A stretch of 64,000 nt of DNA, from NCBI GenBank assembly GCA_951406725.2, contig OX597828.1, forward strand, positions 41,540,001 to 41,604,000. The letters are read 5' to 3'. This DNA is from Octopus vulgaris (Eukaryota). A program made the translations under genes and the position numbers. Shown here one piece after another: positions 10,194 through 56,185 of this stretch. Positions within the stretch are counted from its first letter, which is position 1; every line of letters begins with the position of its first letter. The notes beneath the pieces were generated by a model. The model was not told where the DNA came from and did no database searches. It was given only the letters and a program-made list of their open reading frames with translations.

Positions 10194-11018
10194 TTGTATT
10201 TTCTAGCTCTCAAATCGAATTTGTCAAACAAAAATTTACAGCCAAAAATGCTAGGTCGACTTTAACACAAAGACGACATTGAAAGACAAAAAAATCCACG
10301 TTAAACGCAGCAGGATTTGGAAAGGCGGTGACAATGTTTAAATGTTCACATATATACGCTATATATTTCTTTATTGCCCACAAGGTTTCTAAACACATAG
10401 GGGACAAACAAGGACAGACAAACGGATTAAGTCGATAATATCGACCCCAGTGCGTAACTGGTACTTAATTTATCGACCCCGAAAGGATGAAAGGTAAAGT
10501 CGACCTCGGCGGAGTTTGAACTCAGAACGTAGCGGCAGACGAAATACCTATTTCTATTTCTTTATTACCCACAAGGGGCTAAACACATAGGGGACAAACA
10601 AGGACAGACAAACGGATTAAGTCGATAATATCGACCCCAGTGCGTAACTGGTACTTAATTTATCGACCCCGAAAGGATAAAAGGTAAAGTCGACCTCGGC
10701 GGAATTTGAACTGAGAACGTAGCGGCAGACGAAATACCTATTTCTTTACTACCCACAAGGGGCTAAACACATAGGGGACAAACAAAGACAGACAAACGGA
10801 TTAAGTCGATAATATCGACCCCAGTGCGTAACTGGTACTTAATTTATCGACCCCGAAAGGATAAAAGGTAAAGTCGACCTCGGCGGAGTTTGAACTCAGA
10901 ACGTAGCGGCAGACGAAATACGGCTACGCATTTCGCCCGGTGGGCTAACGTTTCTGCCAGCTCGCCGCCTTCATATATACGCTATATATCACATCGACGA
11001 GAATGTTGGAAAATACAG
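10194..11018. mobile_element. TA-flanked Tc1/mariner/pogo-type MITE (same family as 37416-37677), interrupted by a SINE B trimer
   Basis: Degenerate TIRs TTGTATTTTCTAGC / GTTGGAAAATACAG with TA flanks; 10210-10348 colinear with 37430-37572. Confidence 0.75.
10367..10971 (-). mobile_element. SINE family B with three tandem ~184-bp internal units
   Basis: Head AAGGCGGCGAGCTGGCAGAA, B box GAGTTCAAA; 18-bp TSD CATATATACGCTATATAT at 10349-10366 and 10972-10989. Confidence 0.92.
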
Positions 11019-19470: not shown

Positions 19471-20428
19471 CAGCAACCCCCGATTATCGCGGGTGTTACG
19501 ACCCCCCCCCCCCCCCCGCGCAATAGGCGAAAATCCGCGAAGTAGAAACAGTACTGTACTGTATACATATATATGTATTATTTTTATAATTTGTGTATAT
19601 TTATTTTATTATAAATACAAAACACCACGGAGGAATCGACGTAAGCTTAAACAATAAGCCACGATAGGTAAGACGGCGAGCTGGCAGAAACGTTAGCCCA
19701 CCGGGCGAAATGCGTAGCCGTATTTCGTCTGCCGTTACGTTCTGAGTTCAAATTCCACCGAGGCCAGCTTTGCCTTTCATCCTTTTGGGGTCGATAAATT
19801 AAGTACCAGTTACGTACTGGGGTCGATATAATCGGTTTAATCCGTTTGTCTGTCCTTGTTTGTCCTCACTGTATTTAGCCCCTTGTGGGTAGTAAAGAAA
19901 TAGGTATTTCGACTGCCGCTACGTTCTGAGTTCAAATTCCGCCGAGGTCGACTTTGCCTTTCATCCTTTCGGGGTCGATAAATTAAGTACCAGTTACGCA
20001 CTGGGGTCGATGTAATCGACTTAATTCGTTTGTCTGTCCTTGTTTGTCCCCTCTATGTTTAGCCTCTTGTGGGCAATAAGAAAATAAGAAACGTTAACAC
20101 GCCGGGTGAAATGCCTAACAGTATTTTGTCTGTCTGGGGTCGATATAATCGATTTAATCCGTTTGTCTGTTCTTGTTTGTCCTCTCTGTGTTTAGCCACT
20201 TGTAGTTAGTAAAGAAATAGGTATTTTGTCTGTCTTTACGTTCTTAGTTCAAATTCCGCCGAGGTCGACTTTACCTTTCATCCTTTTGGAGTTGATAAAT
20301 TAAGTACGATTTGCGTACTGGGTCGATCTAATCGACTGGCCCCCTCCCCCAAAATTTAGGGCTTGTACCTAGTGTAGAAAAGAATAAACTGCGATAGGTG
20401 AATCACGATATGGTAAGAGGTTACACTA
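19471..20428. mobile_element. Tigger/pogo-like MITE interrupted by a SINE B multimer
   Basis: TA-CAGCAACCCCCGATTATCGCGG left end; degenerate inverted right end CACGATATGGTAAGAGGTTACACTA. Confidence 0.55.
19670..20382 (+). mobile_element. SINE family B multimer (about four internal units, one partly deleted)
   Basis: Head plus repeated GGTATTTCG...GGGGTCGATAAATTAAGTAC units; diverged 17-bp TSD AATAAGCCACGATAGGT / AATAAACTGCGATAGGT. Confidence 0.9.
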
Positions 20429-32045: not shown

Positions 32046-32478
32046 AGACGGTTAGCGGGCAGAATTGTTAGCAATCCGGGCGAAATGCTTAGCGGTATTT
32101 CGTTTGTGGTTACGTTCTGAGTTCAAATTCCGCCGAGGTCGACTTTGCCTTTCATCCTTTCGGGGTCGATAAATTAAGTACCAGTTACGCACTGGGGTCG
32201 ATATAATCGACTTAATCCGTTTGTCTATCCTTGTTTGTCCTCTCTGTGTTTAGCCCCTTGTGGGTAGTAAAGAAATAGGTATTTCGTCTGTGGTTACGTT
32301 CTGAGTTCAAATTCCACCGAGGTCGACTTTGTTTTCCATCCTTTCGGGGTCGATAAATTAAGTACCAGTAGAACACTGGGGTCAATAAATTAAGTACCAG
32401 TGGAACACTGGGATCGATGTAATCGACAATCCCCTCCCTCATAATTGCAGGCCTTGTGCCTGTAGTAGAAAAGATTAT
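32046..32478 (+). mobile_element. SINE family B dimer
   Basis: Head plus two internal units; ends GGCCTTGTGCCTGTAGTAGAAAAGATTATT. Confidence 0.9.
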
Positions 32479-33227
32479 TAGGAAGTAGCATCTTCCTTAC
32501 AGGATGCCTTTAGATAGTTAAAACAGAGAAGAACATAGGTAAATGCACACCTGCATACATACATACATACATACATACATACATACATACATACATACAT
32601 ACATACATAAATATATATACATATAAACATACATACGTACACACATACACACATACATACATACATACGTACACACACACATACATGCACACACATATAT
32701 ACATACACGCATACACACATGCATACACACATACATACACACATACACATACACGCACATAAATACACACATACATTCATACATACATACATACATACGT
32801 ATTCACACACACTCATACATACATACATGCACAGATACATACGTACACATACATACACACATACATAGACACATACATAGACACATACATACACACATGC
32901 ATACACGCATACATACATACACACACATACATACACACTCATACACACACACACACATGCATATATACATTGATACATGCGTTCCGAGGAGACGATTCCA
33001 CCGTGTGCTATGAAGAAAAAAATTGCAGTGTTGGGAAAAAAGTCAATAATTGCGGATATGGCAAACATGATGTAAGATTGGTTTCTTGGTAACCGACGAA
33101 ACAATTGTAAACGAGACATTAAACACAATTTGCTTACTCGATATTTTTTATTACAGGTACACACATAATTCATATGTATATGTATGTACATACGTACACA
33201 CACACACACATACACACATGCATATAT

Positions 33228-36848: not shown

Positions 36849-37263
36849 ATTTCTTTATTGCCAACAAGGGGCTAAACATAGAGGGAACAAACTAGGACAG
36901 ACAAACAGATTAAGCCGATTACATCGACCCCAGTGCGTAACTGGTACTGAATTTATCGACCTCGAAAGGATGAAAGGCAAAGTCGACCTCGGCGGAATTT
37001 GAACTCAGAACTTAACGGCAGACGAAATACCTATTTCTTTCTTTACCCACAAGGGGCTAAACACAGAGAGGACAAACAAGGACAGATAAACGGATTAAGT
37101 CGATTATATCGATCCCAGTGCGTAACTGGTACTTATTTAATCGACCCCGAAAGGATGAAAGGCAAAGTCGACCTCAGCGGAATTTGAACTCAGAACTTAA
37201 CGGCAGACAAAATACCGCTAAGCATTGCTCCTGGCATGCTAACGTTTCTACCAGCTCACCGCC

Positions 37264-37265
<2 letters not shown>
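36849..37265 (-). mobile_element. SINE family B dimer within (TATC)n
   Basis: Two internal units plus head; TATC repeats on both sides. Confidence 0.9.
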
Positions 37266-37415: not shown

Positions 37416-37677
37416 CAGCATTTTCCGGCATACAAGTCGAATTTTTTCCGCCCAAAATTTAATGCCAAAATTGATGGGTCGACTAATACACCAAGACGAC
37501 TTTGAAAGACCAAAAATTCCATGTGAAATGCAGCAGGATTTGGGAAGACAGTGACGACGTCTGAACGTTCGCACTACACGTCGACACCGTGTACTACGTC
37601 GACACCGTGTACTACGTCGACACCGTGTACTACGTCGACACCGTGTACTACGTCGACTTGTCTGCCGGAAAATACGG
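37416..37677. mobile_element. TA-flanked MITE with ~25-bp TIRs and an internal 18-bp tandem repeat
   Basis: TA-CAGCATTTTCCGGCATACAAGTCGA ... TCGACTTGTCTGCCGGAAAATACGG-TA; (CTACGTCGACACCGTGTA) about 4 times. Confidence 0.85.

Positions 37678-46027: not shown

Positions 46028-46116
<89 letters not shown>
46028..46116. repeat. (TATC)n, left flank of the retrotransposon
   Basis: Direct reading. Confidence 0.95.
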
Positions 46117-47605
46117 CTCGTCGCTTCTATACGTATTGACTCTCGAGCCATTATTGCGGAAGCTGGCAACCTTGAGAGGCATCCCGCGAGAACTGGGATG
46201 CGGGTCGAGCGTGTCTGCATACGCGGACGACGTCACCGTCATAGTGTCTAGCCACGAGCACATCGAGCAGGTCGGCGAGACACTGAAAAACTACGAAGCG
46301 GTGACAGGAGCGAAAATCAACCGGGAAAAGTCAGTGGGCTTGCGACTAGGCACCTGGAGAAGCAAGCCCATGCCGTCCACCAGCGCCTCCGTCGTGGGAC
46401 GCTGGACCGACGGCCCGGTTGAGTTGCTCGGGGTCTGGTTTGGTCCGGACCTCCAAGTGGAGAAGAACTGGAACGAGATAACGAGTAGGGTGGTCACTCT
46501 CGCCCGGCAATGGGCCGAGAGGAAACTGTCCCTAAAAGGTCGGGCGGAGGTGGCGAACACGTACATCGCGTCCGTCATCTACTACCGCCTGACCGTCGTA
46601 CCTTGTCCCGACCCTACCATCACCAAACTACAACGCATTCTCTTTCGCTTCTTGTGGAAAGGATGCGTCCCGATGGTCAGGCGATCCATTTGCTGTCAAC
46701 ACCCGTTAAAAGGAGGGCTGGGCATGCCGTGGTTGATGATGCGCAGACATGCGCTGAGACTGCGACATCTCTGGCTCTATGTAGACGACGGTGAACAGGT
46801 GTGGTCGCCGTTTGTGAGGCACGCTTTCCCGCAGCTCGTCTCCATGACCGAACTGCAGTCGTGGATCAAAAAGAGGCCGAAGAAGGGCGAATGGCACCGC
46901 GAGTGTCGCGTTGCTCTCAAGCAACTCTGCCGTCCTGGGTCGACCTTGAGTGACTTCAACACAACCAAAGCATTCTATAGGGGTTTAGTGGAGGGGAGGT
47001 ACGACGACGAGCTCGGGGCGAACCTGGACGTCGACGAGGAGTACCTGACCCGCCTGTTCAGGACGACTTTCGGGCCAGGGCCCATGGACAACTTCCAGAG
47101 ATCCCTGGCCTGGCAGTGCTACCGAGAAGCGCTACCCGTTCGGGATAAGCTCTACAGACACGGCTCGAGAAACACGGGGCCGACCTGCCCGAGATGCGGT
47201 CAGAGCGACGAAACCGTTCTGCACGCACTCGTGCAGTGTCCAACAATTTCCGACCTGTGGGCTTGTGTCGAACAACTGCTGTCACGTGTGGGACGAGTCG
47301 GTTTATCAGCTGAGTCTATCGTTAATATTGTCACGCCTCCCTCATTCAAACGGGAAGGAAGAGCTATTTTCATCATCCTTATGGCTATGGCGAAAGAATG
47401 TATCTGGTGGACGCGTCTGAAAGGATTGGAGACAAACACTTTCCTCTCTGGTCAATCTCTCATCAACTTCTTCAAGTACCACTTGAAAAGGAAAGTGAGA
47501 GTAGAGAGGCAAGTTTTGTCTAGCGAATGTTTTAAAAAAAGATGGGTGAATGTAGCAAGAATGGCACGTATGAATGACGAAGCCACCTTGAGCATGATCC
47601 TATGA
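46115..47605 (+). CDS. Partial ORF2 (496 aa, no start): RT C-terminal half plus CCHC zinc finger
   Basis: LSSLLYVLTLEPL (equivalent to PLSPLLF), YADD at 46220, GAKINREKS, LSLKGR, FLWKG, GGLGMP, C-X2-C-X8-H-X4-C at 47186-47239; no stops or frameshifts. Confidence 0.92.
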
Positions 47606-47974
47606 ACCCAGAAATTGAAAACAGAGAGTTGCTTATTTGCAAAAAAAAAAAAAAAAAAGAAATATAACATGTGACTCCATTGACCGAGGTTACCGTGGTC
47701 TTTTCCGTAGGCTTTTCTTTTCACGGGTAAACCTCACCTGTCCTCCCCTTTACACTTCATATTGACATTTCTGTGATAACGATCCCTATTGATCAATTTT
47801 TTTTTTCCTCTCCCCCTTTTTTTAACCCCCTTTTTTTTGTCCTCTTTCTCTCCTTTTACGATCCCTTTTGATCGAAACTCCCCCTTCCTTTTTTTTTTTA
47901 AACCTTCAAAAGAAAAGCTCTACCTTGTAATTTGTTCTATCTGTGTGCAGCCCTGTGTGGTTAATAAAGAAACA
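46115..47974 (+). mobile_element. 5'-truncated non-LTR retrotransposon, L1/Tx1 clade
   Basis: GC-rich ORF2 fragment plus ~370-bp 3' UTR ending AATAAAGAAACA, then (TATC)n; no poly(A) tail at the junction. Confidence 0.9.
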
Positions 47975-47988
47975 TATCTATCTATCTA

Positions 47989-48019
<31 letters not shown>

Positions 48020-50858: not shown

Positions 50859-50990
<132 letters not shown>

Positions 50991-51027
50991 GGCCACAATA
51001 AAAAGTTATCTATCTATCTATCTATCA

Positions 51028-53272: not shown

Positions 53273-53692
53273 ACCTATTTCTTTATTACCTACAAGGGGC
53301 TAAACACAGAGGGGGCAAACAAGGACAGACATAGGTATTAAGTCGATTACATCGACCCCAGTGCGTAACTGGTACTTAATTTATCGACCCCGAAAGGATG
53401 AAAGGCAAAGTCGACCTCGGCGGAATTTGAACTCACAACGTAAAGACAGACGAAATACCTATTTCTTTACTACCCACAAGGGGCTAAACACAGAGGGGAC
53501 AAACAAGGACAGACATAGGTATTAAGTCGATTACATCGACCCCAGTGCGTAACTGGTACTTAATTTATCGATCCCGAAAGGATGAAAGGCAAAGTCAACC
53601 TCGGCGGAATTTGAACTCACAACGTAAAGACAGACGAAATACAGCTAAGCATTTCGCCCGGCGTACTAACGTTTCTGCCAGCTCGACCACCG
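53273..53692 (-). mobile_element. SINE family B dimer
   Basis: Two near-identical 184-bp units plus head. Confidence 0.92.
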
Positions 53693-54926: not shown

Positions 54927-55244
54927 TTGTTTTTCGATTTTTACTTGCTGATGGTTGCTCAATATATCGAGTGAGGTTGGTAGCATGGCTAAAATCAGAG
55001 TAACACAATATATCAAGGCTGTACGTTTAATCATAGCAAGAATTCATCTGCCGGTCTTCCAGACAGCTTCCCTTTTACCCGATACCATTCACAAAGCCTT
55101 GGGATGAAGCTCGAGGCAATGGTAAAAGACATTTAACCAACATGACACGCAATGGGTGGGATCGAACCTGTGATCGCTTACGCTGAACGATTAAAAAGGT
55201 GCTTTACTTAAATATTTGGTTAATACATTATTGTTTCTGAGAGA

Positions 55245-56185
55245 GACACAAGGCCTGAAATATTGTGGGGAGGTGTAAGTCGATTACACTGACCTCAGTG
55301 CATAACTGGTACTTATTTTATTGACTTTGAAAGAATAAAGGGCAATGCTTGAACTCAGAACTTAAAGACGGACGAAGTAACGCTAAGTATTTTGGCCAAT
55401 GTCATAACGATTCAACCGGCTCACCTCCTTCAATAGTTTGAAGTATTTCTATTTTGACTTCAAATATTAATATAAGGCTAGTAATTTCAGGGAAGGTGGT
55501 AATGAGTCGATTACATCGACCCCAGTACACAACTGATACTTATTTTATCGACCCCAGTAATCAACAGATATTTATCGACCTAGGAAAGATGAAAGGCAAA
55601 GTCGACCTCGGCAGAATGTGAACTTAGGACGTAAAGACGGACGAAATGTTGTTAAGCATTTCGCCCGGCATGCTAACGTTTCTGAAATATTCTTAAATTT
55701 ATTTCTTTATTGCTCACAGGGGGCTAAACACAGGGACAAACAAGGACAGAAAAAGAGATTAAGTCGATTACATCGACCCCAGTATGTAACTGTTTTATCG
55801 ACCCCGAAAGGATGAAGGACAAAGTCAACCACACAGAGAGGACACACAAACGGATTAAGTCAATTACATCGACTCCAGTGCCTAACTGGTACTTATTCAA
55901 TCGACCCCGAAAGGATGAAAGGCAAAGTCGACCTCGGCGGAATTTGAACTCAGAACATAAAAACAGACGAAATACCACAAGGAGCAAAACACAGAGAGGA
56001 CACACAAGCGGATTAAGTCGATTGTATCGACTCCAGTGTGTAACTAGTACTTATTCAATCGACCCCGAAAGGATGAAAGACAAAGACAACCTCGGCGGAA
56101 TTTGAACTCAGAACGTAGCGGCAGACGAAATACTACTACGCATTTCGCCCGGCGTGCTAACGTTTCCGCCAGCTCCCACCGCCTT
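55245..56185 (-). mobile_element. Cluster of SINE family B copies and multimers
   Basis: Repeated ATCGACCCCGAAAGGATGAAAGG units with at least two heads. Confidence 0.85.

Follow-up and report, generated by a model that had tools for sequence, protein, structure and literature searches.

The feature spanning positions 46028-48018 of the window (the whole 64,000-nucleotide stretch of DNA that was analysed) consists of one copy, truncated at its 5' end, of an abundant L1-clade LINE family, probably of Tx1 type. The probability is put at roughly one half that its placement between TATC repeats reflects a loose preference for TpA-containing, AT-rich repeat sites over a strict TATC target. This preference is suggested by proxies, namely SINE arrays and distant relatives, as opposed to other copies of the exact family, and the proxies are limited in that the SINE sample is small (n=3) and the relatives stand at 40-42% protein identity.

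Anatomy of the truncated copy

The original prediction had described a 496-codon RT/CCHC frame that starts within a (TATC)n tract, with TATC on the same strand after the end of the element and without poly(A), and this anatomy was confirmed throughout (Table 1). In Pfam searches the frame matched RVT_1 at residues 1-107 (E 5e-8), covering model positions 125-203 of 205 and thus the C-terminal part of the RT only, and zf-RVT at residues 330-382 (E 6e-8). The YADD motif occupies residues 36-39 of the frame, and C358, C361, H370 and C375 are invariant across 15 aligned relatives. The relatives read ...RQGCP upstream of LSSLL, a place taken in the window by a Tyr codon that derives from the repeat; this puts the 5' junction at ~46115 and indicates that the copy was cut in mid-RT. 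The copy is thus 5'-truncated, as the relatives continue upstream of the portion retained here. Lost from the copy are ORF1, most of the RT and the endonuclease; the absence of the latter had been predicted, and the frame indeed begins within the RT. The proposed CT microhomology at the junction holds for the Leu codon, as judged from the copy's own DNA and the relatives' proteins. The element terminates at 47974 as AATAAAGAAACA, with the end GAAACA, and passes into (TATC)4 (47975-47990) and (TGTC)7 (47991-48018); no poly(A) was found in the sequence 3' of 47974, and no second copy of the LINE within the 64-kb window. A host gene was ruled out as the identity of the 496-codon frame by the missing N-terminus and the family-wide 3' UTR.

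Table 1. Coordinates of the LINE copy, the SINE-like arrays of the window and the loci of relatives
Feature	Position	Strand	Basis or remark
(TATC)22, 5' flank	46028-46115	+	perfect-run scan; likely the original microsatellite
CT overlap of repeat and first Leu codon of element, 5' truncation junction	46115-46116	+	sequence and relatives' upstream residues
Open 496-codon C-terminal portion of ORF2	46115-47605	+	open reading frame, plus stop
RT end with YADD	about 46115-46435	+	Pfam
CCHC zf-RVT	about 47102-47260	+	Pfam
Family 3' UTR, 369 nt	47606-47974	+	covered in 4/4 sequencing runs
Tail common to LINE and window SINE, 37/50 columns identical	47923-47972	+	alignment
AATAAA in LINE 3' UTR	47963-47968	+	
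(TATC)4T, 3' flank	47975-47991	+	possible target-site duplication, <=17 bp
(TGTC)7, usual continuation of this window's TATC tracts	47991-48018	+	repeat scan
SINE array A, head and three 184-bp units, shared tail	10365-10970	-	18-bp target-site duplication, AT-rich non-TATC DNA
SINE array D, shared tail	36849-37264	-	inside (TATC)n on both sides, orientation opposite to LINE
SINE array E, shared tail	53277-53684	-	no flanking microsatellite, no clear duplication
SINE-like arrays B, C and F, second tail	19671-20400, 32046-32490, 55230-56184		
Relatives' loci L004-L059	contigs of CAXXMW01		
Relative's locus L060	CAXXGD01		

Affiliation, abundance and age of the family

The closest protein, P0002 (912 aa), is 71% identical to the frame across the whole query, followed at 35-47% identity by a group of proteins of ~1,150 aa that carry endonuclease, RT and zf-RVT domains. 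A tree built from the RT domains of 106 of 113 long proteins (seven were dropped for short alignment), which contains no named Tx1 sequence, unites P0002 with 39 of these relatives in a single clade (support 0.997). Exo_endo_phos, RVT_1 and zf-RVT are all present in two relatives of 40-41% identity, P0005 and L023. Compared with the PDB, P0005 lies far nearer to human L1 ORF2p (E 9e-69) than to R2 (E 5e-16), a coarse comparison in which L1 and R2 are the sole RTs among the matches. With these relatives as proxy, the LINE can be assigned to the L1 clade in the broad sense that includes Tx1, in agreement with the original prediction. The ORF1 of L023 contains a CX2CX4HX4C motif, of a type shared by plant L1s, for which the Pfam knuckle matches are weak (E 0.03-0.06) and below the cut-off. 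A type I ORF1 with a CCHC knuckle fits Tx1 in non-mammalian animals (PMC5203782), and the LINE itself is likely a Tx1 element.

The named matches are Octopus bimaculoides gene models, one at 83% identity over 46 aa and another at 53%, and the host is likely an Octopus. The first of these, P0055, is a Rho-GEF 10-like gene model whose first ~46 residues are 83% identical to the zinc-finger region of the LINE; its start is either an exonised piece of the LINE or a gene-model error. Contigs matching the LINE were present in all four sequencing runs (42,647, 41,317, 15,238 and 11,242; four organisms), with 30 of 30 bins covered, and the summed depth over the LINE reached up to about 2 million, against ~25-55 for the longest single contigs of run X1. 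These counts and depths are not a copy number and are read simply as very many copies; the family is large. Alignment searches for relatives returned none in viral contigs and three distant ones in metagenome contigs, and the exact 3'-end pattern of the LINE had no match in viral, metagenome and genome contigs.

Of the 42,647 contigs in run X1, 10,414 match this copy at 99% or better and 3,558 fall below 90%. In 21 of 40 variant rows (of 180) the majority letter in X1 is not that of the copy, and in four of the 40 the copy stands against 98% or more of the depth in every one of the four runs. With its frame intact and a distance of about 1% or more from the X1 majority, the copy is fairly young. 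The intact frame had been taken to suggest recent activity; the copy is indeed young, which falls short of showing present activity. L1-Tx1 elements have expanded in coleoids (PMC8967140) and in O. vulgaris form a large class of 80 families and 56.3 Mb, including 13 recently active families with 421 insertions (PMC13282606).

A 3' tail shared with a SINE

The window also contains a SINE-like repeat composed of a head and tandem 184-bp units, six arrays of which were examined. The 184-bp SINE end reads AATAAAGAAAT; over the last 50 nt it is identical to the LINE at 37 positions and has the same end base, and none of 2,000 shuffles was as good. Internal units of the SINE mostly read AGTAAA where terminal units keep AATAAA. 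The head is presumably tRNA-derived, judging from its A/B-box-like motifs; no tRNA was detected by ARAGORN within the window or by Rfam in SINE array A. On the likeness of their tails, the LINE likely drives the SINE, possibly as a pair of the stringent type. A tail hairpin with covariation was unsupported (fold of -2.4 kcal/mol, with 0/9 pairs changed on both sides among seven sequences), so that "stringent tail recognition" is here a reading of sequence likeness. The SINE tail is just 74% identical, so a sister family that uses another target may be the actual driver.

Arrays B, C and F carry a second tail and were excluded from the flank count (n=3: A, D and E). In sequence the latter is similar to the 3' UTR of the array-forming relatives described below (33 nt at 82%, E 0.008). 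As one SINE tail is LINE-like and the other relative-like, a single LINE lineage may have two branches, each with a SINE that it drives.

Array-forming relatives and the ends without poly(A)

Fifty-seven loci with 33-42% protein identity to the LINE were located on animal-like contigs in two bacterial genome bins (Table 1), where they look like host contamination. The contigs of the Arenicella bin contain full-length L1/Tx1-type elements in head-to-tail arrays that repeat every ~6.4-6.9 kb; the elements belong to several families, each mainly in its own array, and the junctions past AATAAA are short and variable. Two array starts that were inspected (L038 and L045) lie in unique DNA. Among 60 distinct 3' ends of relatives on 17 contigs, 54 adjoin sequence common to another unit and none has a microsatellite within 40 nt. 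The arrays look like the outcome of repeated insertion at the element's own end. Rfam identified no RNA genes in 12 loci of the relatives, which indicates that these do not sit in snRNA, tRNA or 5S arrays.

Relatives at 40-42% identity end a few bases past AATAAA and, like the LINE, lack poly(A). The 3' UTR of the LINE itself resembles the relatives' 3' end no better than chance (860/2000 shuffles). As the absence of poly(A) is lineage-wide and extends to relatives without a single microsatellite-associated end in 60, it is no sign of targeting, and poly(A) loss was rejected as a mark of targeting in favour of a trait of the whole lineage.

Probable insertion into a TATC tract and possible target preference

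Perfect TATC tracts make up 1.9% of the window and TATC arrays identified by TRF 3.0%, in keeping with the few percent given in the original prediction. All 20 TATC runs, at nine independent sites, are on the plus strand, with none as GATA; the p value of this strand bias is 0.004 (9/9 sites), or about 0.05 after allowing for the 12 repeat classes looked at. Plus-to-minus ratios in the window are 14:1 for TGTC and 15:3 for ATC. Two minisatellites are also present, a 31-bp unit repeated 20.5 times at 1-638 and a perfect 18-bp unit repeated 4.4 times at 37578-37657. An 18-bp piece bearing AATAAA (50989-51006) splits a long (TATC)n on the plus strand, which is also the strand of the LINE; it may represent the outermost 3' end of another LINE, perhaps a TATC-seeking one, and had no match to the end of this LINE, elsewhere in the window or in the 60 fetched loci.

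When the element is excised in silico, (TATC)n(TGTC)7 remains, and TGTC likewise follows the TATC run at four of the eight other TATC sites of the window, which argues for insertion into a pre-existing tract. It is thus likely that the LINE entered a (TATC)n(TGTC)7 microsatellite that was already present, rather than carrying TATC as a tail. Insertion in (TATC)n had been the earlier claim, and to the extent that removal of the element restores an ordinary TATC-TGTC tract it can be considered probable. The (TATC)4T run can be a target-site duplication of 17 bp at most, its limits not being definable inside the repeat, and the 18-bp duplication of SINE array A is near this ceiling. Target-site duplications of human LINE-1 measure 7-20 bp.

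A reading in which the 3' flank starts with TA is possible for the LINE and for SINE arrays A and D alike. Taken together with the position of array D in a tract class that forms 3% of the window, this favours a loose preference over pure chance. Tx1 families often switch targets (PMC4494074). Three of the nine TATC sites in the window are interrupted, by the LINE, SINE array D and the 18-bp piece, which hints that these tracts attract insertions beyond what a loose preference needs. A broader composite, in which an octopod L1/Tx1 lineage lacking poly(A) would recognise its own 3' end, through that end drive one of the most frequent octopus SINEs, possess an endonuclease drawn to (TATC/GATA)n as a new microsatellite target and have array-building cousins, is offered tentatively and is rather doubtful.

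It is unlikely that no preference exists and that the placement of this copy from an abundant family reflects chance in a genome rich in repeats. Such an event would be eased by the size of the family and by the repeat content of the window, 13% of which consists of perfect repeats of at least 16 bp and 26% of TRF arrays of period <=6, and SINE array E does lie outside any repeat. The presence of a LINE copy in some microsatellite is not rare, and this copy was picked for its flanks; since a flank of any microsatellite would have attracted attention, finding one copy within a repeat exceeds chance just modestly. Less easily accommodated are array D, as one array in three would fall within a 3% class by chance with a probability of ~9%, and the (AT)-rich site of array A.

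About as unlikely as the absence of any preference is a Kibi/Koshi-like endonuclease that cuts (TATC/GATA)n and places most copies in TATC in one orientation. The TATC on both sides of the LINE is on the same strand, TRF TATC arrays amount to just the small share of the window given above, the 18-bp piece resembles a tiny LINE 3' end in same-strand TATC, and Tx1 families for the tetranucleotides (TTCC)n and (TTTC)n exist (PMC4494074), all of which would suit such an enzyme. However, an endonuclease strictly specific for a non-palindromic target would be expected to leave its insertions in a single orientation, and same-orientation TATC was found at 0/3 of the tail-sharing SINE arrays, a proxy in that the SINE may use a sister family; on this proxy, membership in the Kibi/Koshi type would not be granted. 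The relatives, with 0/60 ends abutting a microsatellite, the lineage-wide absence of poly(A) and the failure of the 18-bp piece to match either the LINE end or any of the 60 loci likewise count against strict targeting. The threshold for family specificity in PMC4494074 is more than 20% of copies flanked by the repeat; in the present case both junctions of a single copy are in the same repeat and in one orientation. Some further negative results carry no weight for or against targeting. None of 24 loose contig ends out of about 4,100 is a TATC run, but single-copy junctions would not rank among these 24. A translated TATC run was present in 0/320 fetched proteins, and a peptide across the 3' end of the LINE gave no matches (one candidate), in both cases with gene callers that rarely include flanks.

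A TATC tail encoded by the element, annealing to TATC tracts or seeding them, is very improbable and was rejected: TATC directly adjoins the 3' end of the LINE, and short tandem repeats terminate several LINE clades (PMC3747384), but the SINE with the homologous tail stops at the same GAAAYA with own-strand TATC after it in 0/3 terminal copies, the relatives stop 1-11 nt past AATAAA without a repeat, and the 3' run has just four units before passing into (TGTC)7 as other tracts do, with 22 TATC units on the 5' side.

Proposed mechanism of insertion

The loose preference for TpA-containing, AT-rich repeat sites can be combined with the shared tail in a joint reading, held at about even odds, whose steps are all inferred from the anatomy of the copy and established L1-clade biology. 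A full-length member would supply ORF2 with its APE endonuclease, and this ORF2 would bind RNA through its own 3' tail; given such recognition, a SINE with that tail could borrow the protein. The bottom strand would be nicked at an A/T-rich, TpA-containing site, of a kind that would be plentiful in (TATC)n, (GATA)n and (TA)n tracts alike. The last few bases of the RNA (GAAAYA) would then take the role of poly(A) in pairing with the primer, target-primed reverse transcription would halt after 1.86 kb, and the cDNA would be joined to the upstream DNA via the 2-nt CT overlap. A staggered second nick would give a duplication of 17 bp at most, here taken to be (TATC)4T. By analogy, the copy would work like other 5'-truncated L1/Tx1 copies.

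Comparison with known elements and implications

Microsatellite-targeting Tx1 families include Kibi in (TC)n, Koshi in (TTC)n and the crocodilian Tx1-1_Crp group in (TTCC)n/(TTTC)n (PMC4494074; PMC3812793). The octopus LINE shares with these an ORF2 of L1/Tx1 type and a copy with one microsatellite on both sides. It differs in that its repeat is TATC, outside the targets given in the parts of these two papers drawn on here, and in that the proxies oppose family-wide specificity. No TATC/GATA-targeting family was found in the literature searched, which includes PMC4758252, PMC4824008, PMC3531059, PMC10294476, PMC8967140 and PMC7140322, with Repbase, Dfam, the Zenodo consensus library of PMC13282606 and the supplement of PMC4494074 outside the search. 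The family resembles the Octopus L1-Tx1 families of PMC13282606 in being abundant, young and of the L1 clade, and is very likely one of them; the portions of PMC13282606 and PMC8967140 that were available give no target sites or SINE partner for their annotations.

With human LINE-1 (ORF2p structures 9k6g and 8uw3 in the PDB, the closest solved structure), the lineage has in common an APE-RT-cysteine-rich ORF2 and 5' truncation with microhomology. Unlike human LINE-1, it has no poly(A) tail, and the ORF1 of its relatives has a CCHC knuckle and is not of the mammalian type.

The tail of ~50 nt common to the LINE and the SINE has parallels among L1-clade LINE/SINE pairs in ZmSINE2/3 with LINE1-1_ZM and in SINEX-3_CR with L1-1_CR (PMC3747384). 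Unlike those pairs, which come from plants and an alga, the octopus pair lacks poly(A) and a supported hairpin. Just three SINEs with L1-clade tails, from plants and an alga, appear in that 2013 review, whose Table 1, as far as seen, has no animal L1/Tx1 pair (PMC3747384). In crocodilians, SINEU and Tx1-Mar likewise represent an animal SINE inferred to have been moved by Tx1-type LINEs, with tandem SINE copies (PMC4494074); that link comes from a shared Mariner target, whereas the octopus link comes from the shared 3' tail, with targets that do not visibly agree. The literature searched, with Repbase, Dfam and the Zenodo library outside it, yielded no octopus L1/Tx1-SINE pair.

If a TATC-specific family did exist, it would add one more target to the known list and another sequence-specific endonuclease, without a new principle. 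The shared LINE-SINE tail matters somewhat more than the placement in TATC, as tail sharing between L1-clade LINEs and SINEs is rare. SINEs account for 11.6% of the O. vulgaris genome (PMC13282606), and naming the likely LINE driver of an abundant octopus SINE would open the distinction between stringent and poly(A)-relaxed RNA recognition by L1-clade elements to testing in an animal lineage.
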